A stretch of DNA of 11,087 nucleotides from a virus (lineage: Duplodnaviria > Heunggongvirae > Uroviricota > Caudoviricetes), in the IMG/VR virus record IMGVR_UViG_3300018080_000120, one strand, 5' to 3'. Made by a program: the position numbers and the translations under genes. The notes beneath the pieces were generated by a model, which saw only the letters and a list, made by a program, of their open reading frames with translations, was not told the DNA's origin and did no database searches. Positions 850 to 11,087 of this stretch are shown piece after piece (position 1 is the first letter of the stretch; every line of letters begins with the position of its first letter).

Positions 850-1668
850 ATGTGTGGTATTTTCGGAATTGCTTATTATGGTGAAACGGCTCCGCCAGCT
901 TCTCAGGCAAAAGCCATGAGGAAAGTCTGTCGGAGCCTTATGTCAGCTTCAGAGATAAGGGGGGCTGATGCTGCTGGCGTGTGTGTTTTGGCAAACAATC
1001 ATGCAACAATATATAAAAACAATACACGCGGCAGAGAAATTGTGAAGCGGCCAATGTTTAACAAAGCCCTTATAAACATAAAATCAGACCCATTTGCTCA
1101 AGCTGTGCTTGGTCATACTCGAGCGCAAACGAAAGGGACACACCATAATAATTTTAATAATCATCCAATCATAACCGAAAATGTTATTGGCATTCACAAT
1201 GGGGTAATACAAAACGATGAAAAGCTTTATGGTCCTATGAATATACCCAGAAAAGGATTGGTGGACAGTGAAGTGATCTTTCAACTCATAGATATGTATG
1301 TGACAAGAAGAGATGCAAGCCTTATAAAAGCTGTAAAGCTTACTACTGAAAAATTGTTTGGGTCATATGCATGTGCTTTTATTCATCTTCAGCACCCAAA
1401 TTACCTTACTCTTTTCCGAAATAGTGGGTACGGAAATATATATGTTTATACCTATGATACTTTTGACACCATGTTGTTTGCTTCGCTCGATACCATTCTT
1501 GATAGAGCAATAGAAAAAAATGCATGGTTTAATAAATCATATCTTTCAGACAGAGTAAAATTGAAAGATGACAGCGGCATGAGAATCAATCTTGAAAATG
1601 GCAAAACATTTTGCTTTGAAATAGAAGACGAATACAGCAACAGTTATAAATACTATTGCTGCGGTTAA
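850..1668 (+). CDS. Class II (Ntn-hydrolase) glutamine amidotransferase #1, stand-alone
   Basis: N-terminal MCGIFG (Cys nucleophile after Met removal), RGADAAG, GHTRAQT, NNHPI, HNGVIQN and DSEVI are hallmark GATase type-2 motifs. SD aggag at 837-841. Confidence 0.93.
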   Translation: MCGIFGIAYYGETAPPASQAKAMRKVCRSLMSASEIRGADAAGVCVLANNHATIYKNNTRGREIVKRPMFNKALINIKSDPFAQAVLGHTRAQTKGTHHNNFNNHPIITENVIGIHNGVIQNDEKLYGPMNIPRKGLVDSEVIFQLIDMYVTRRDASLIKAVKLTTEKLFGSYACAFIHLQHPNYLTLFRNSGYGNIYVYTYDTFDTMLFASLDTILDRAIEKNAWFNKSYLSDRVKLKDDSGMRINLENGKTFCFEIEDEYSNSYKYYCCG

Positions 1669-1682
1669 AGGGGGAGGTAAAT

Positions 1683-2666
1683 ATGTATTCAAAAAGGTTA
1701 AAGTACTATAGAGAAGTCAAAGAATGGAATAAGGAAACCACGCTTAGTGGGACCCTTGTAGCTATGTCTCACGGACTATCTGTAGGCACTCCATGCCTTG
1801 CATCAATAAACAAAGGCACATCTCATAGGCGGCCAGTAAATAGAGCGACGAAAAAAATAGCTGATAAATATGGGTTATTAGACCCATTTGATCCTGCTTA
1901 TGAATCTACCAAAAAAAGCGAATATTCCAAATTGTTAGAATTGATTAAAAATGGGAGCGATATTTCTACAATCCAAAAGCTGTTGTGCTCTAAATACGAA
2001 CTGATTGAAGTCATCATTCCTTTTGTGGAACTCGGATGTGGTATGGGAGATATGACTTCTGTAGTAATTCCACCTCAACAGATTTCTTGTAATTCCCAGA
2101 TTCCTATAATATATGATGACAACTTTTATACTGCGGAAATAGCCTTAGATGATTTCCCAAGGCCATCATTTGTTATTTACCAACTAACTACTCATAGGTT
2201 TGTAAATTATGAGATAAGAATCGGACAATCAAATGTAAAAAAGGTGCAAACCAAATTCAACAAAATGGTAGCAGCTTTCAAAAAATTCTTTCCATTTAAC
2301 ATCTGTACCTATTATCGTAGTAATACAAGTTCAGAAGTATTATTGGACACGTTGTCGATAAGCTTCTATAAACTAAGTGATGTCATACCCGTTTTTGATT
2401 ATAGAAGCTGCAAAGAAGGAATGTGTATGGAAGTAACGCTTGCTAACTCAAGCATAAACAAAATTTACTCAGTGAACCCTAAAACCACCGCAAAATTCAG
2501 ATTTTTATTTTCTGCTACAAAAGAAAACATTCTTTCCATTGATGGAGAGAAGATAACGAGGGGTAAATCTGAAAAGCCAGTAGATGCCGGGATAAAATAC
2601 ATTTATAATTGTATGAACGCCAATATCCCGAATGACAATATAAATATAAAAACTATAGGGTGTTAG
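1683..2666 (+). CDS. Hypothetical protein (327 aa) containing a SAM-binding motif I-like sequence ELGCGMGD
   Basis: Long ORF filling the gap between the two amidotransferases. Start moved from TTG 1656 to ATG 1683 because SD ggaggt lies at 1673-1678. No family recognised with confidence. Confidence 0.8.
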   Translation: MYSKRLKYYREVKEWNKETTLSGTLVAMSHGLSVGTPCLASINKGTSHRRPVNRATKKIADKYGLLDPFDPAYESTKKSEYSKLLELIKNGSDISTIQKLLCSKYELIEVIIPFVELGCGMGDMTSVVIPPQQISCNSQIPIIYDDNFYTAEIALDDFPRPSFVIYQLTTHRFVNYEIRIGQSNVKKVQTKFNKMVAAFKKFFPFNICTYYRSNTSSEVLLDTLSISFYKLSDVIPVFDYRSCKEGMCMEVTLANSSINKIYSVNPKTTAKFRFLFSATKENILSIDGEKITRGKSEKPVDAGIKYIYNCMNANIPNDNINIKTIGC

Positions 2667-2679
2667 GAGGATAAAAATT

Positions 2680-4782
2680 ATGTGCGGAATAGTTGTAGGA
2701 TTAACATTTGGCGAACTACCAGAAGTAGAAGAAAAAATAAGGCAAAAAATGCTGCGATGTATGACAACAGAGCTTTTACTTCTCACCGAATCGAGAGGTA
2801 AAGATGCTACTGGAGCTGCAGCCTTATTTGATGATGGTAGATATATAGGCATAAAAAGAGGGGAAGAAGTTACTTCTTTCTTATCGGTCTTCGGAAACTC
2901 TAAGGAATATTATGGGGGATTTCTGAAGGTGTGGGAGAAACATCCAGCACCAGTCAGAGTTTATTTAGGACATTGTAGAGCTGGAACTGGTGGTGCAAAG
3001 GAAGATAACAACAACAATCACCCAATCAAAATAAGAAACATGATTGGAATCCATAACGGTGTTGTTCACAACGACAAAGAGATATTCGAAAATCTCGGTT
3101 GTAAAAGAGACGGCGAAGTTGATAGTGAGGCCATTTTCCGCTTGTTTGATCATTTTACTAACCATGGAAAAGAACCGTTCACCATGGATATGATACAAGA
3201 AGTTGTGAGAAGGTTGGATAGTTTCCACACTGTTTGCCTTTTCAATGCAGACAATCCATATCAAGTGCCCATATTCAGAGATCGTAGGCCATGTTATCTT
3301 GTATTCATCAAAGAATGGGGATTATTATTTGCCATATCAGAGCCTGGCTTCTGGGCTACTATGAGGTATCGGTATGAAAGAATGGCTAATTATTATGATG
3401 CAAAAATGCCGTCGTTGTTTCGATGTACTATCGAAAAGAAGGAACTACCAGATGATTCCTGCATAATATTTGATCTGACCAAAGGAGTAGAAGATGACAC
3501 TGTTATTGATGACCTCGGTGAATATTCCAAAATACTGAGGACAAACAAAATATGGCAGAAACCAACCACAACCTATACAAGAGGAACTGATTATCAGAGA
3601 AACACATGTGGTTATAAACCTGGATCAGGTAATAACAACAGTGATTCTGATGATAGCACTAGAGCAAAGAAGAGAAGAGTTTTTGACAGGCTGGAGAAGA
3701 AATATGTTATCAAACAAGGTGATAAAGTTCTCAAAGATGATTCATCTATCACAATTGATGTTGATAATTGTGGTGACAATGATGACGACGATGATAGTGA
3801 GACCGGTGGATCTGAGGACAACACTATACATACTCCTGTGACTACAGATTTTGAAGAGCAGGAGAATTTGGGAACAAAAGCCGATAAGACAGACCTTACA
3901 GAATATACGCAAACACAATATAAATCAAAGGAAAAAAAGATAATTGATTCCAAAGAATATGTCACGGTTTACAATTACCTTAAAAGTGAAGGAAGTCTAA
4001 ACGAGCCTCTTTATTCTGAAGATATTGGTGATTTTCTTGCTGGCCGAATCCAAATTGAAATCAAAAGAAGAAAAATAGTCGCGCTAAATCTTCCCGGATA
4101 CTATCTTACATTAAAGCTAAGGGATGTTAAAAAATGGAAAGACTTTCTTGAACTAGTGAATAAGAGAAACTCGGAATTAAAAAAGTTAGCTCTTGATATT
4201 CCTACTCCAACATATAAATATGCAACCACTGATGCAACTACTGATGATGATATTCCTACTATCGAGGCTGAAGTGGTCGATGAGGACGATAAGGATAAAG
4301 GCAAAGATGTAGGTGAAGTTGAAGTAGATATGGATATTGAGCATGCTGCCATTGGCCTTAAAGCAGAATCTTTGTATAAACTAGCTCCAATTCAAGAGAA
4401 AGGATTTATCAATATAAAAGAATTGATAGAAGCAGTTGATATAAAAGACGAAAAGACTGCAAAAGATGTAGGCCCAGTTTTTATTGCTAATCGAGTTGTA
4501 TCTAGAAGTTGGAAACATGGATTTCTTCACGGATATATGTGTAGTCAACAGGAAGATGTCGAAAATCTTAAGAATATAATCTCTCTTTTAGCTGGGGTTA
4601 TTACCGAGAAGAAACATAAAGCTCGGTTGGCAAATGCTGCAATGAAATCTGGTTCATCTGTCGATTTGAATATGGAAAAGATAAAGAAATTGTTCAGTGG
4701 AACCAAAAGACTGGAAGAAATTGCCAACATACTAAATGATGCCCACCAGTATGCTAATACAGGAGGAGAAAAGAAGAAATGA
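2680..4782 (+). CDS. Class II glutamine amidotransferase #2 with a long acidic/helical C-terminal extension (700 aa)
   Basis: MCGIVVG, RGKDATG, GHCRAGT, NNHPI, HNGVVHN and DSEAI lie in the first ~290 aa. SD aggagg at 2665-2670. The remaining ~400 aa are of unrecognised function. Confidence 0.92.
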   Translation: MCGIVVGLTFGELPEVEEKIRQKMLRCMTTELLLLTESRGKDATGAAALFDDGRYIGIKRGEEVTSFLSVFGNSKEYYGGFLKVWEKHPAPVRVYLGHCRAGTGGAKEDNNNNHPIKIRNMIGIHNGVVHNDKEIFENLGCKRDGEVDSEAIFRLFDHFTNHGKEPFTMDMIQEVVRRLDSFHTVCLFNADNPYQVPIFRDRRPCYLVFIKEWGLLFAISEPGFWATMRYRYERMANYYDAKMPSLFRCTIEKKELPDDSCIIFDLTKGVEDDTVIDDLGEYSKILRTNKIWQKPTTTYTRGTDYQRNTCGYKPGSGNNNSDSDDSTRAKKRRVFDRLEKKYVIKQGDKVLKDDSSITIDVDNCGDNDDDDDSETGGSEDNTIHTPVTTDFEEQENLGTKADKTDLTEYTQTQYKSKEKKIIDSKEYVTVYNYLKSEGSLNEPLYSEDIGDFLAGRIQIEIKRRKIVALNLPGYYLTLKLRDVKKWKDFLELVNKRNSELKKLALDIPTPTYKYATTDATTDDDIPTIEAEVVDEDDKDKGKDVGEVEVDMDIEHAAIGLKAESLYKLAPIQEKGFINIKELIEAVDIKDEKTAKDVGPVFIANRVVSRSWKHGFLHGYMCSQQEDVENLKNIISLLAGVITEKKHKARLANAAMKSGSSVDLNMEKIKKLFSGTKRLEEIANILNDAHQYANTGGEKKK

Positions 4783-6125
4783 AAAAACAGTTAATCTTAG
4801 TTATTTCTCCCCGAATGAATTCTAACAGAAAAAAGGATAGGAATGAAGATCGTCTTATCCGAATGGGGAGTAAAACGAGAGCTAATCTTGGCTTAACGAA
4901 TGATAAAACTGTGGAACTGTGGCCAAATACCAACTCTCAGGAAAGAATATCAAGAAGTAAAGTGCTGACTATTTTTCAAGCATTTTCTTCCGACCTTAAA
5001 AATTTAAAGAAGTCTGGAGTAAGTACAGACGAATTTAATAGATCAGGGTTCGTGACGGAAAAAACATTTCATTATATATGCTCCGATGGAAGGCGTAAGA
5101 AAAGTGATATATGGCTTGCGGATTCCATTGAAGATACAGTTATCGGAGCAGATCCAGAATTCGCACTTTATGATAAAAATAAGAATCTTGTACATTATGC
5201 TGGCCATGTGCCGGGGTTTCCTTTCAGTGGCGAACTGTCTTCTGATGGACCATTAGCAGAAATAAGACCTGATCCTGATGAAAACATTGAAAAATTCATC
5301 AAGAATATCGGGAAAATTTTAAAGACCAGCCCAAGCAGAAAATCTATTGAAAAATTTGATTGGCTTGTCGATCCATATTTCCGTGGGCGACCTGCTGATA
5401 ATCCTAATCAAGGTATTAGAGATTGGACAATTGGTGGTCATATTCACATAGGTACGCCATCTTTATTAAGAGAGTCTGAATTAATGACCGAAGCCACCAG
5501 TTATTTTCAGAAAGCCTCACACTATCCGGGATTTTTGCCCTTTTTGAACAAAGCGCTCGATGAATATATTGCAATTCCATTGATGAAAGTGGCTGGCAAA
5601 GAACCATCCGTAAAAAGAAGAAAGTCCGGATATGGTAAATATGGTAGCTATCGTGGAGAAAATGTTGGAAGATTGGAATACCGAACTTTAAGTGGTATCT
5701 GGCTCGCTCATCCTGAAATAGCAAAAGCCGTTATCGGAGCCACAAAAGCGGTTTCTGATGCTTTCTTTAAAATACTTGAAGAAGGAGAATACAAACGGAA
5801 TTTGTTACCCCTGCCTAAAAGTTCTTATAGCAGGGTATTCCACGCTGATTATGACGGATGGAAAGACTCTAAGGCGATGAAAGAAATTCAAGCAATAAAA
5901 TCTTCTCATCGAATGAAAGAAATATTACATGAAGGACAAATGACATATAATAAACAATACTATACAAAACTAAGAAAGATGTTCAGATCTCTATCAACTT
6001 ATAAAAAATATGCAAAATATATTGACAGATTTCTGGAGATAGTATCTTTACCGAACGAAAATTTGAAAAAGATAAATCATAATATCAAATATGGTTGGGT
6101 AGAAGGTGCAGACTTTATTATATAA
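4779..6125 (+). CDS. Phage phiEco32-like COOH-NH2 ligase type 2 with an extra N-terminal domain
   Basis: Family motifs IGADPEF (5142-5162), DGPLAEIRP, GGHIHIG and LEYRTLSGIWL. ATGA overlap with the upstream amidotransferase. SD aggaggag at 4761-4768. Confidence 0.88.
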   Translation: MKKQLILVISPRMNSNRKKDRNEDRLIRMGSKTRANLGLTNDKTVELWPNTNSQERISRSKVLTIFQAFSSDLKNLKKSGVSTDEFNRSGFVTEKTFHYICSDGRRKKSDIWLADSIEDTVIGADPEFALYDKNKNLVHYAGHVPGFPFSGELSSDGPLAEIRPDPDENIEKFIKNIGKILKTSPSRKSIEKFDWLVDPYFRGRPADNPNQGIRDWTIGGHIHIGTPSLLRESELMTEATSYFQKASHYPGFLPFLNKALDEYIAIPLMKVAGKEPSVKRRKSGYGKYGSYRGENVGRLEYRTLSGIWLAHPEIAKAVIGATKAVSDAFFKILEEGEYKRNLLPLPKSSYSRVFHADYDGWKDSKAMKEIQAIKSSHRMKEILHEGQMTYNKQYYTKLRKMFRSLSTYKKYAKYIDRFLEIVSLPNENLKKINHNIKYGWVEGADFII

Positions 6126-6136
6126 GGAGGAGTAAT

Positions 6137-7216
6137 ATGAGCAAATATTTATGGTATTCTGGAGCAACTGATATAACAGGAAAGAAACTGGCGGAAGCAC
6201 TCAACCTCGAAGGCGGTAAAGCCAAACCGAAAAGCAAGGACATTGTGATTGGGTGGGGAACCAAAACAAAAGAGGGCGTGAATCTGGGAAAGGCAAAGGT
6301 TTTGAATCATCCGAACACCATTCGGAAAAACCGAAACAAATTGACCACATTGAAAACCCTGGCTGCAAATCAGGATGTTTCTTCGGCAATTATGAGTTTT
6401 AGCTCCGCCAATAATGTGGACAGCATATTGGGAGAAATTTCCCTGCCGATGGTAGGTCGAACCAACTATCATCAAGGCGGAAAAGGTTTTTGGCTCTGCT
6501 TGACCAAATCCCACATCACTCGTGCTCTTAAAGAAGGCGCTCAATATTTTCAGAGTTTCATTGATATCAACAATGAATACCGAATTCATGTTGCATTCGG
6601 TAAGGTAATTTATGCGGTCAAAAAGGTAGAAAATGCCTCTCTGGAAAGCTGGATAGCCCAGAGAAAAGAGAAGATTGAAGACTATGCTCAGAAAAACAAC
6701 GTAAATCTGGACGCGGCAACAATGAAATACGTACTCGAACGTCTTGCCAAAGAGGCCAAGCTGCCGGATATAATCATCCGAAGCAACCGGAAAGGCTGGA
6801 AATTCAGTAACGTCCCAATTGCCAGCTTAAGCACTGCATTGAAAAATGCCGCTGTCAAGGCCGTTGAGGTTATAGGATTGGATTTTGGAGCAGTCGATTG
6901 TGCAATTTCAACCAGCAACAAACCCTATATCATCGAGATCAACAGTGGTCCTGGCCTAAAAGGTACCGCTTTTGAAAAATATGTGGATGCTTTCAAGGCC
7001 AAAATATCTGAACTGGAAGCACCGCCGGCTCCTGCCGCCAAGAAAGCTCCTGCCGCCAAGAAAGCCCCCGTGGCTGCAAAGAAAGTCGCTGATGGAGTAG
7101 GCGCGGATAATGCCGCTCCTGCCATCAAGGGTGAAGCAATGGTTCATATAATGAACGAAGTGAAAAGTGCCGACGAAGCGAGGAAGGTTCTTGACCTATT
7201 AATGGGAAAGGCTTAA
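6137..7216 (+). CDS. ATP-grasp peptide ligase (RimK/YheCD/phiEco32-like), 359 aa
   Basis: VIGWG, NKLTTLKTL, GRTNYHQGGKG loop, EYRIHV, GLDFGAVD and IIEINSGPGL (E-x-N metal-binding motif). Start moved to ATG 6137 behind SD aaggagg at 6124-6130. Confidence 0.92.
   Translation: MSKYLWYSGATDITGKKLAEALNLEGGKAKPKSKDIVIGWGTKTKEGVNLGKAKVLNHPNTIRKNRNKLTTLKTLAANQDVSSAIMSFSSANNVDSILGEISLPMVGRTNYHQGGKGFWLCLTKSHITRALKEGAQYFQSFIDINNEYRIHVAFGKVIYAVKKVENASLESWIAQRKEKIEDYAQKNNVNLDAATMKYVLERLAKEAKLPDIIIRSNRKGWKFSNVPIASLSTALKNAAVKAVEVIGLDFGAVDCAISTSNKPYIIEINSGPGLKGTAFEKYVDAFKAKISELEAPPAPAAKKAPAAKKAPVAAKKVADGVGADNAAPAIKGEAMVHIMNEVKSADEARKVLDLLMGKA
7028..7084 (+). repeat. In-frame 18-bp tandem repeat encoding APAAKK, within the ATP-grasp C-terminal linker
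   Basis: gctcctgccgccaagaaa occurs exactly twice (7028-7045, 7046-7063), followed by a degenerate 21-bp third copy gcccccgtggctgcaaagaaa (7064-7084). Confidence 0.9.
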
Positions 7217-7217
7217 T

Positions 7218-7697
7218 ATGAACAAATTTAGATTGACAATCACGTCTGATTCAATAGCTGCCCAAATAGCCAGCTTATTAAATGCTGGCGGGCAGTTATT
7301 TTATCACTTCAATAAAAACACGATATTACAGAGCGATGTCCAATATCTAATTGAGCTGGACAAGGACAAAGTCACAGGTGTAATAGGGCTGCAACAAAAA
7401 ACGGCTCGGGTCACAGAAATAAAACATCTATGCGTCCATCCAGATTATAGGCGTAAAGGTTTGGGCAAAAAATTGCTTGAAATGGCTATTAAAGCCACAT
7501 CAACAGAGTTTTTATATGGTACGGTGAGAGAAAGTAATCATGTTAACATCCGGAATAATTTCAGAGTTGGAATGAAAGCCATTGGAAAGTTTCGAGGCAG
7601 AGGATGTAATGTGATAATATTTGCAAGGAGGAAAGATGGCATTGGGTATCGAATACAAAAAGGGCAAACTGAAAGGCCTGCATTATATAGTAGTTGA
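7218..7697 (+). CDS. GNAT-family N-acetyltransferase
   Basis: EIKHLCVHPDYRRKGLGKKLL contains the acetyl-CoA-binding motif A (V.P.YR.KG.G..L). Size 159 aa. Starts 1 nt after the ATP-grasp stop. Confidence 0.92.
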   Translation: MNKFRLTITSDSIAAQIASLLNAGGQLFYHFNKNTILQSDVQYLIELDKDKVTGVIGLQQKTARVTEIKHLCVHPDYRRKGLGKKLLEMAIKATSTEFLYGTVRESNHVNIRNNFRVGMKAIGKFRGRGCNVIIFARRKDGIGYRIQKGQTERPALYSS

Positions 7698-8511: not shown

Positions 8512-9567
8512 ATGAAAATAATAGGCAATAAGGACATTATGAGTCAGCTTGCAGTTGCCGCTCATTCTGCCACTGTAGAAAATAGATCTCTGCCTCACAC
8601 TCTTTTAAGTGGGGCCGCTGGTTGTGGTAAAACCAGTACAGCTCGCCATATCGCTGAAAGAACTGGTTGTGGTATAATAGAAGTTCCGCCGGAGGGCATA
8701 AAATCTCGCGATGACATGTTGAGAATACGAGAAGCTTTTGATATCACTGGATATGATAGAATTGGAAATAAAGTCGGCAAAATAAGACCATCCATTCTAT
8801 TTATTGATGAGATTCATCGACTTCCCATCCGAGGCCAAGAGCATCTGGGTATAGCTATGGAAAATTGGATAATACCTCTTGATGAAAATCAAGTGAAACT
8901 TGGTTTGAATCTCAAAGAAAGTGTCCAATTTGGTTCAGCTGCCAAAGGCAGGGGTAGATGGTGTCCTCGGTTTACTTTGATTGGTGCAACAACTGATGAT
9001 GGACTACTTTCAAAACCATTTAAAGATCGATTTAAAATGAAATTCATATTCAATACTTATTCATTAGAAGAATCGATCGAAATAGTTAGTGTTCATGCAG
9101 AAAGATTGAAAGTGGAAATCACAGAAGATGCAGTGGAAGCTGTAGCGAAAAGAGGTCGAGGAGTGCCAAGAATTCTTGTGGGTCTCCTTGAAAGATGTAG
9201 AGACACTGCAATATCAGCCAAACTAAATACGATAAATGTAAATGTATGTAAAGTAGCTTTCATGTTGATGGGAGTAGACAACACTGGCCTAACCCAAACT
9301 GATATAAAGATATTGAAAACTCTTTATAAAAGCGGAGATCCTGTTGGTCTGGACAATCTGTCAATAATTGTAAATGAGTCTCGTAAGACCATCAGCGAAA
9401 CTATTGAACCATATCTTGTACAAAGGGGATTTATTTTGAGATCCTCAAGAGGCCGAACTTTAACAAAGAAAGGCCGGGAATATTTGATAGAAAATGGACA
9501 TGTTGAAGGAGAAGAAAACAATGTCGATTATATTGATATCCCATTAGATTACGAAAGGAGCATCTAA
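8512..9567 (+). CDS. ruvB: Holliday junction branch-migration ATPase RuvB homologue (divergent)
   Basis: Walker A GAAGCGKT, Walker B ILFIDEIHRL, FTLIGATT, arginine-finger KDRF, sensor-2 RGVPRI, and C-terminal winged-helix motifs PVGLDNLS and IEPYLVQRGFILRSSRGR. SD agaggt at 8500-8505. Confidence 0.9.
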   Translation: MKIIGNKDIMSQLAVAAHSATVENRSLPHTLLSGAAGCGKTSTARHIAERTGCGIIEVPPEGIKSRDDMLRIREAFDITGYDRIGNKVGKIRPSILFIDEIHRLPIRGQEHLGIAMENWIIPLDENQVKLGLNLKESVQFGSAAKGRGRWCPRFTLIGATTDDGLLSKPFKDRFKMKFIFNTYSLEESIEIVSVHAERLKVEITEDAVEAVAKRGRGVPRILVGLLERCRDTAISAKLNTINVNVCKVAFMLMGVDNTGLTQTDIKILKTLYKSGDPVGLDNLSIIVNESRKTISETIEPYLVQRGFILRSSRGRTLTKKGREYLIENGHVEGEENNVDYIDIPLDYERSI

Positions 9568-10472
9568 TGCCAATAAGAGAAAGAATAATCAAGGATGAGA
9601 AAGGCAATCCAGTTATAGATCCAGAAACGAATGAACCGAAAGTGGAAGTGGAAAAATTCTTGCCACATTTTCTTGGCGATACAGAGGCAGAAGCAACTGC
9701 AACTCTCAAAGAATACGAAAAAACAATGAAAATATTGGCTGACAAATTTCACATGATCACCGGTCTTGACGCCGACGATCTGAAAAGTGAATGTATGATT
9801 GGACTGGCAAGAGCAAAAAGAGATTTTGAAGAAGAGCGCAGCGAAATGTTTCGAACATTCGCCATCTACAAGATGAAAGACGCTCTCCGTGAATTCACAA
9901 CCAAACAAATGCTGGATGTTAAAGTTCCTCAGTATGTGAAAGATGCAGAGAAACTAATAAATGATCTGGCAAAATTGGTTGAAGCATGTCATGTAGTAAA
10001 AAATGCCAGCTTCCGTGACATCTGGTTGATGTCAGAAGCATGTGATGGGGATAAAAATATCCAAAAAGATATCGAGCGGATAAGAGAAAGCTTGACTAAT
10101 TTAGCGAACAGGTCTCATACCAGTGTAATTCAGTTATTGGAGAGAGCAGAAATGCTACCATCATCCACAATAGAAATAACTGACCACAATGTTTCGAATA
10201 TATCTATTGATACACACGAAGATGGGATGTTGGATAAGTTAAACATAAATGAGACCATAAAGAAATTGAAAAATTTCTTAACGGAAGATGAATATAAACT
10301 GCTATATGATTACTACGTGAACGGAAAAACAGAAAGGGAATTAGCCGTAGAATTAGGCATAAAGGCTCCATCAGTCCATATAAGATTACACAATACGTTA
10401 ACCAAGGTGAAAGAGCATAAGAAGGAGATCTTAACCGATGGAAGCGATCAAATTACTGAAGAGGCTGAATAA
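9567..10472 (+). CDS. RNA polymerase sigma-70 family sigma factor (group 3-like)
   Basis: Region 2: DDLKSECMIGLARAKRDFEEERSEMFRTFAIYKMKDAL, then VKVP. Region 4 HTH: LTEDEYKLLYDYYVNGKTERELAVELGIKAPSVHIRL. TAATG overlap with ruvB. SD aggag at 9556-9560. Confidence 0.9.
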   Translation: MPIRERIIKDEKGNPVIDPETNEPKVEVEKFLPHFLGDTEAEATATLKEYEKTMKILADKFHMITGLDADDLKSECMIGLARAKRDFEEERSEMFRTFAIYKMKDALREFTTKQMLDVKVPQYVKDAEKLINDLAKLVEACHVVKNASFRDIWLMSEACDGDKNIQKDIERIRESLTNLANRSHTSVIQLLERAEMLPSSTIEITDHNVSNISIDTHEDGMLDKLNINETIKKLKNFLTEDEYKLLYDYYVNGKTERELAVELGIKAPSVHIRLHNTLTKVKEHKKEILTDGSDQITEEAE

Positions 10473-11087
10473 AGAAACAGCAGCTGACGTATATTACTCA
10501 GGTGAATTCGTTAGAGATGTCGCAAGAAGAAAAAGATCAAACGACATAAGTGTAATCGTAAGGAATTTACCTTTCAAAAAAATTCTTAGTTTTATCAATT
10601 CATATAAAAAACGTCTGCACAAAATCTATTCTAACACAAGAAATAGTTATATACGATTTCAGCTGAAGGAAAGTAAGAACACGGTACATGTTCATCTGCC
10701 TCAAAAAAATGGTAAGCATAGTCCTTACTATACCTTAAACGAAGATGCTCGATGTCGAGACTTCACAATAAATGCCATGTATCTATCAGTTCAATCCATG
10801 TCAAGAGATCTTATAATAGATCCAGTTGGTGGACTGAAAGATATAAAACGGCGAAAAATAAAGACAGTGAGGGCCGCTCGGTATTTAGTAAAAAGAAATC
10901 CAGCGTCAATGATAAAAGCGGTGGCTTTATCTGCTAAGCTCAGATATCGAATAGATAACAACTTATTTTATGCCATAAAGGTCAATCATCAACTTGTGTC
11001 TCGGGTAAAAACTTCAGACATAAGAAATTCATTGGTAAATATACTACTTAGCCACCGACCGTCGAGATATTTTCGGATAATGAATGA
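10438..11087 (+). CDS. CCA-adding enzyme / poly(A) polymerase (class II nucleotidyltransferase) homologue with degenerate catalytic motifs; 3'-truncated and not in the ORF track
   Basis: Manual translation from ATG 10438 (SD gaaggag 10421-10427) stays open to the window end: MEAIKLLKRLNKETAADVYYSGEFVRDVARRKRSNDISVIV...LNEDARCRDFTINAMY...IIDPVGGLKDIKRRKIKTV...RNPASMIKAVALSAKL...DIRNSLVNILLSHRPSRYFRIMN. RDFTINAM and DPxGGLxD are diagnostic of the family. Confidence 0.88.
   Translation, partial: MEAIKLLKRLNKETAADVYYSGEFVRDVARRKRSNDISVIVRNLPFKKILSFINSYKKRLHKIYSNTRNSYIRFQLKESKNTVHVHLPQKNGKHSPYYTLNEDARCRDFTINAMYLSVQSMSRDLIIDPVGGLKDIKRRKIKTVRAARYLVKRNPASMIKAVALSAKLRYRIDNNLFYAIKVNHQLVSRVKTSDIRNSLVNILLSHRPSRYFRIMN

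Follow-up and report, generated by a model that had tools for sequence, protein, structure and literature searches.

A clade of phage CCA-enzyme orthologues with an eroded polymerase site and a conserved HD site

The window (the whole analysed stretch of DNA, 11,087 nt) ends within a gene for a class II tRNA nucleotidyltransferase homologue. Judged from its sequence, the polymerase of this protein is dead, and the hydrolase of its HD domain looks alive. We propose that the protein may be a CCA-enzyme orthologue that would have lost the polymerase chemistry and been kept as a tRNA-directed HD phosphohydrolase. This would mean that, in nature and across a whole clade, the two activities of the multifunctional CCA enzyme have been separated, with intermediate stages seen in syntenic orthologues. 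The gene is regarded neither as decaying nor as encoding a pseudo-enzyme as a whole, because it is under purifying selection, the HD ligands are kept and a canonical copy is encoded separately.

The phage sigma factor, a single-chain RNA polymerase, an amidoligase cassette, tRNA arrays and syntenic IMG/VR genomes of 238-298 kb indicate that the source is a large phage. The sequencing runs carrying the phage were sediment and seawater metagenomes, with no RNA run among those listed.

The gene and its polymerase and HD sites

As had been noted earlier, the reading frame of the homologue contains no stop up to the window end, the rest of the gene being located outside the window. By look-ups with the sigma and RuvB proteins three further assemblies of the same phage were found (L083, L084 and L085). 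L083 equals the window over 5,449 nt and carries the whole gene (L083:4800-6182, protein P0002, 460 aa), and no stop follows immediately downstream, a point which the earlier note had wanted checked. Between L083 and L085 there is no difference over 5.4 kb; L084 is a strain of 98.9% identity with a single base change in the gene, which does not affect the motifs. The motif codons are the same in these three independent assemblies, and an assembly or sequencing error is thereby ruled out.

The gene shares its first 35 nt with the 3' end of the sigma gene, and its ribosome-binding site is as good as had been described (Table 1). The window ORF matches the Pfam PolyA_pol head with E=1.4e-13 and also matches E. 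coli poly(A) polymerase and CCA enzymes. The richness in Lys and Arg that had been remarked upon was borne out: these residues make up 21% of the head, which has a net charge of +31, compared with about -5 in bacterial-type matches.

Table 1. Features of the window (positions are those of the whole stretch; residues are those of the window protein; n=112 eroded relatives)
Feature	Position	Strand	Remark
Two glutamine amidotransferases, COOH-NH2 ligase, ATP-grasp, GNAT	850..7697	+	synteny markers
RuvB-like AAA+ ATPase	8512..9567	+	in conserved gene order
Sigma-70-like phage sigma factor	9567..10472	+	conserved upstream neighbour
Shine-Dalgarno sequence AAGGAG	10422..10427	+	10 nt 5' of the ATG, within the 3' end of the sigma gene
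Class II tRNA nucleotidyltransferase homologue, codons 1-216 of 460 aa	10438..11087	+	head, neck and start of body; ATG at 10438
Motif A, first half	10501..10518	+	second Gly replaced by Glu23 (G22-E23); position 23: E57, K13, G13, A10
Metal-binding DxD position	10543..10551	+	D36-I-S38; by alignment
Third-carboxylate strand, then shortened flexible loop	10684..10725	+	His84; strand 10684-10701; by multiple alignment
Motif B region and conserved structural stretch 3' of it	10741..10779	+	C106-R107-D108 (10741-10761); D103 in 111/112
Motif C, retained	10819..10842	+	D128 invariant, G132 in 105/112
Motif D amino-acid template	10894..10908	+	E, D, R replaced by R153, N154, S157
Motif E region	11014..11028	+	D194-I-R196 (11017-11025); Arg196: R 107/112, K 5/112; Glu position variable

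All motif strings which the earlier note had read from the window are present where it had placed them. The register of the DxD was set by alignment to E. coli poly(A) polymerase, and as relatives we counted the 112 non-identical members of the eroded clade. The GG of motif A and the DxD of class II CCA-adding enzymes are both missing from the window protein. The two closest relatives have E-I-K at the DxD position, and a strict DxD is found in 0 of the 112. Position 38 is still acidic in 98/112, positions 36 and 38 are both acidic in 15/112, and R26, R30 and R107 are retained. An acid at position 84 occurs in eight relatives, never along with both other acids, and none of the 112 is acidic at each of the three carboxylate positions. 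The flexible loop comprises 8 residues (positions 88 to 96) versus 15-21 in canonical homologues; this deletion is a further loss beyond the motifs listed earlier.

The EDxxR template of motif D is absent as well, and the template positions vary freely across the 112 relatives. In the earlier note the eroded templating motif had been given as EDxxRRD. This label was mistaken, as the template is EDxxR (motif D) and RRD belongs to motif B (PMC11784652, PMC7947759), but the conclusion of erosion stands because both sites are eroded. In the ranking by entropy the lost catalytic positions 36, 84, 153 and 157 fall into the 86th-96th percentile. A new conserved chemistry at the old polymerase site is unlikely, since few positions of the protein vary more than these.

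The HD domain which had been suspected downstream does exist. It is situated in the part of the gene past the window end (about residues 241-369) and is followed by the tail. The HDIG-type ligand set H...HD...H...H...D is complete in the full protein: H248, H269, D270, H293 and H325 are invariant, and position 368 is Asp or Glu in 112/112 (Glu in four). The full protein scores 45.7 bits with PF01966 (cut-off 22) and 37.8 with TIGR00277 (cut-off 27.6). Across the clade the mean identity amounts to 0.64 in the HD region, 0.58 in the tail and 0.43 in the head, and 40 of the 80 positions conserved at >=95% are located in the HD region and only 8 in the head. The view of the protein as a catalytically dead scaffold is therefore not supported in the form in which it was put: with an HD site that is invariant in 112/112 and lies in the best-conserved region, the protein has most likely remained an enzyme.

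With matches to PF01743, PF12627 and PF13735, a pol-beta head plus neck, body and tail is present. For the AlphaFold model (pLDDT 94.6) the best Foldseek match was the Aquifex CC-adding enzyme-tRNA complex (E=4e-16). The HD region by itself again gave the Aquifex CC-adding enzyme as the best fold match (Z 12.9, rmsd 2.8, 141 aligned residues). Rel chains reached a Z of 5-6, well under the CCA-family match, and no RSH profile was among the Pfam and NCBIfam matches of the protein. Profile and fold search both give an HD signature of the CCA-enzyme type.

Selection, locus history and the second CCA enzyme

More than 100 homologue clusters were collected, with identities of 43-83% and lengths of mostly 450-467 aa. 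Full-length members keep head, neck, body and tail, with all domains under selection, and their median net charge is +21 versus +2 in the canonical paralogues. The dN/dS of the head is 0.08-0.19 among eroded pairs (0.10-0.14 in the least saturated) and 0.11-0.12 versus the two closest relatives (dS above 1), all values being approximate as dS is near saturation in several pairs. Stops, frameshifts and a dN/dS near 1, as they would mark a pseudogene, are absent from the full 460-aa gene. In agreement with the earlier opinion that the gene is not decaying, the substitutions are shared by orthologues at a dN/dS of about 0.1; neither are they unique to one assembly, which had been raised as a possible objection.

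Members of the eroded clade were not found in IMG/VR viral contigs, among the top 80 matches in GTDB genomes, or among the listed matches in GenBank phages (24-32% identity). The GTDB top 80 contained four DxD-intact phage-like contigs, three with GG+DxD and one with N-x-D. Fusions of more than 805 aa were not found either, which is weak evidence. A description of such proteins was not met with in the literature searched, the coverage of which was incomplete. For more than 100 sequence clusters the label "CCA-adding enzyme" given in databases is probably mistaken.

The gene order COOH-NH2 ligase, ATP-grasp, GNAT, unknown gene, RuvB, sigma, CCA homologue is shared; it was scored in homologues with enough flanking sequence, and in a few of them sigma was too diverged to score. 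The order of the amidoligase cassette (window 850-7697) is conserved across the family. In the IQ-TREE phylogeny the fully canonical syntenic orthologues L002 and L050 are basal, followed by two sister clades (each 100/100). The eroded proteins form a single clade (100/100) nested among syntenic orthologues still having the DxD. In the sister clade (L001:10001-11410, L027-L049, L051, L093, L105, L106) GG and DxD are present in 22/22, and Gln occupies the third carboxylate position in 22/22. The flexible loop is missing here, the template Asp is replaced by Ser, Gln or His, and the last HD Asp by Glu in 21/22. This clade possibly represents a nucleotidyltransferase of altered specificity. The loss looks stepwise within one orthologous locus, from canonical over DxD with altered template to dead, a reading that hinges on the rooting by bacterial and paralogue rows and on an alignment in which the motif columns were kept. 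The linkage to sigma predates the loss of the polymerase, because it is also found in the canonical orthologue L050 and in the DxD-intact group.

Some irregular members of the family were observed. In a single record (P0130, 785 aa) a sigma-70 region is in-frame with a DxD-intact member, which is either real or an artefact of the overlapping genes. Two further DxD-intact members are each split by one in-frame stop (L028:5378-5380 and L047:2884-2886; TAA and TGA), which may be an error or a true break. In the 545-kb phage L101 / G007 the pieces of a CCA/HD-like gene are separated by about 2 kb, and a second copy lies elsewhere in the genome. L103-L106 are contigs with this phage gene order inside bacterial bins of unrelated taxa; they are probably mis-binned phage DNA and give no evidence for a host.

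A second CCA enzyme, P0271, is linked to the eroded gene on the basis of overlapping contigs. On the contig SRR21285571_3618 (98.9% identity to the window) the final 42 residues of P0271 come first and are followed by Rnl2 and RtcB; the contig breaks off in the eroded gene, about 34 kb downstream of P0271. P0271 has all canonical CCA motifs and an intact HD motif, and it belongs to a separate 66-member phage family which groups with bacterial enzymes in the tree. A recent duplication was rejected, as P0002 and P0271 are only 25% identical and located in different branches. Both CCA types are also present, with RtcB and Thg1, on a second phage contig (SRR35109389_7256), and the eroded gene is absent from the P0327 contig. 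The co-occurrence of eroded and canonical enzyme thus comprises two genomes only. No second copy was found in two large genomes with a DxD-keeping syntenic copy (298 kb, complete; 238 kb, 87% complete). This pattern, two genomes versus two, fits a replacement of the polymerase function by the acquired enzyme.

Arrays of tRNA genes are located downstream of the eroded gene. At six eroded-clade loci CCA is encoded in 10/49 tRNA genes, which contradicts the idea that the enzyme became dispensable because the phage tRNAs encode CCA. With so few CCA-encoding genes, CCA addition would still be needed, from P0271 or from the host. The eroded gene sits with sigma and RuvB, apart from the RtcB/Rnl2/Thg1 cluster, and a stand-alone HD gene is also present in the same phage genome. 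An RlaP-family nucleotidyltransferase (L083:10738-11535) is found about 4.5 kb 3' of the eroded gene, just 5' of the tRNA array. Upstream of the single-chain RNA polymerase a conserved block (L194:881-9449 and L200:8656-17839) comprises RtcB, a canonical CCA enzyme, a lytic transglycosylase, a COOH-NH2 ligase, a stand-alone HD protein and a NUDIX protein; it differs in containing Rnl2 in one phage and Thg1 in the other.

Possible functions of the eroded protein

We consider that the protein could be a tRNA-binding 3'-end phosphatase (a tRNA/RNA 3'-end phosphohydrolase) that unblocks tRNA ends, and give this proposal about an even chance. The basic head, neck, body and tail would still grip tRNA or a similar RNA, as the fold, the charge and the ancestry of the protein suggest. 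The HD site would then take a blocking group off the 3' end, be it a 2',3'-cyclic phosphate, a 3'-phosphate or a toxin-added pyrophosphate. The unblocked tRNA could be used again by the canonical CCA enzyme, RtcB, Rnl2 or aminoacyl-tRNA synthetases, which would serve to sustain translation in the face of host defences that target tRNA. The protein is a candidate phage answer to tRNA-targeting immunity. The two activities are known to be separable: in the M. tuberculosis enzyme a DLD-to-ALA mutation abolishes CCA addition and leaves the HD phosphohydrolase activity in place (PMC10673834). The HD domain of the E. coli enzyme removes 2',3'-cyclic phosphate from damaged tRNA (PMC6961547).

Some points speak against a phosphatase. 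The HD motif of P0271 and the stand-alone HD gene make simple end healing look redundant, and the acid at position 38 and the three retained arginines are left without explanation. The fold search singles out no substrate, and HD domains are promiscuous. Two further objections are the location of the gene next to sigma and RuvB instead of in the RtcB/Rnl2/Thg1 cluster and the small number of genomes, two, in which it co-occurs with the canonical enzyme. With an HD motif also in P0271, plain healing would seem redundant, which hints at another kind of lesion. By analogy, the CCA scaffold might hold full-length tRNA while the HD site erases toxin-added 3' groups such as the pyrophosphate of CapRel/FaRel-type toxins, a counter-defence that we consider rather unlikely. 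It would explain the loss of the polymerase, since removal of a pyrophosphate requires no nucleotide addition. Pyrophosphorylation of tRNA-CCA by toxSAS toxins such as CapRel is an anti-phage mechanism (PMC9712102) and is reversed by HD-type alarmone hydrolases (10.1101/2021.04.30.441581).

As an alternative, the substrates of the HD site might be small nucleotides, be they 2',3'-cNMPs, (p)ppApp or further immune signals, with the head as a structural relic or a nucleotide/RNA sensor. R26 and R107 are kept, and HD folds of PgpH, GppA/PPX, Rel and YqeK were matched with Z 6-8.5, but such values are within the range of unrelated helical bundles, and a full basic scaffold under purifying selection is not obviously needed by a small-molecule hydrolase; we take this alternative to be fairly improbable. 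It is quite unlikely that the protein is a tRNA-directed nuclease or regulator whose scaffold is directed at host tRNAs, or at partners such as sigma, and whose HD domain cleaves or trims RNA. Cas3-HD is the next sequence match of the HD region (E=0.002), and both the conserved sigma linkage and the sigma-CCA fusion P0130 would agree with such a role, but the linkage is older than the loss, the fusion is one unconfirmed record and the HD signature is that of CCA enzymes. For a pure tRNA-binding shield or decoy lacking catalysis we see a slim chance: the strongly basic surface, the intact fold and the lost polymerase site would suit it, whereas six HD ligands and their pocket would not be expected to stay invariant, nor half of the most conserved positions to lie in the HD region.

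A residual or altered nucleotidyltransferase with a rearranged site (e.g. E23 with 36 or 38) is very unlikely. The frequent acid at 38, the members with acids at both 36 and 38 and the odd template of the DxD-keeping sister group would be in line with it. However, many members have K, A, S, T or G at position 23, three carboxylates occur in none, the window protein has D36 and S38 versus E36 and K38 in its closest relatives, and in the human enzyme no change is tolerated at the template D and R (PMC11784652). A decaying pseudogene or an assembly error, which the eroded motifs alone might suggest, has a negligible probability in view of three agreeing assemblies, a full-length open frame, more than 100 diverged relatives and a low dN/dS.

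Comparison with known systems

The eroded protein shares the four domains and the HD signature with bacterial class II CCA-adding enzymes with HD(IG) (E. coli, M. tuberculosis Rv3907c, TIGR02692 type). TIGR02692 is its best NCBIfam match (E=7e-62), with a score of 209 far under the cut-off of 439. Unlike the bacterial enzymes it has no DxD, third carboxylate, flexible loop, RRD or template. It appears as the natural counterpart of the engineered DLD-to-ALA mutant (PMC10673834), and the split offers a ready test of the role of the CCA-enzyme HD domain in vivo.

By structure and by profile, both the complete protein and its HD region find their best match in the Aquifex aeolicus CC-adding enzyme (PDB 3WFO-3WFS). 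CC-adding enzymes are characterised by a short loop (PMC3925840) and keep the carboxylates and the template D/R (PMC7947759, PMC11784652); the eroded protein has the short loop and neither of the latter, so that the combination of short loop, intact carboxylates and xDxxR is not found in it. The small alarmone hydrolases MESH1 and ATfaRel belong to the HD superfamily and unblock tRNA 3' ends. This is a functional analogy only, as they are stand-alone RSH-type proteins without a tRNA-binding CCA scaffold and the likeness of the eroded protein to Rel is weak (Z 6.3).

RNA-repair kits with CCA-adding enzyme, RtcB, Rnl2, Thg1 and RlaP have been described for jumbo phages (Iyer et al. 2021, PMC7824862). 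Like these, the present phage has RtcB, Rnl2, RlaP, a canonical CCA enzyme and tRNAs, and a relative also has Thg1. The difference is that the available part of that description deals only with CCA-restoring enzymes and does not mention a second copy with inactive polymerase and intact HD site. From its motifs the protein is thus a conserved variant of a known enzyme family that falls outside the CCA- and CC-adding enzymes and within the HD hydrolases.
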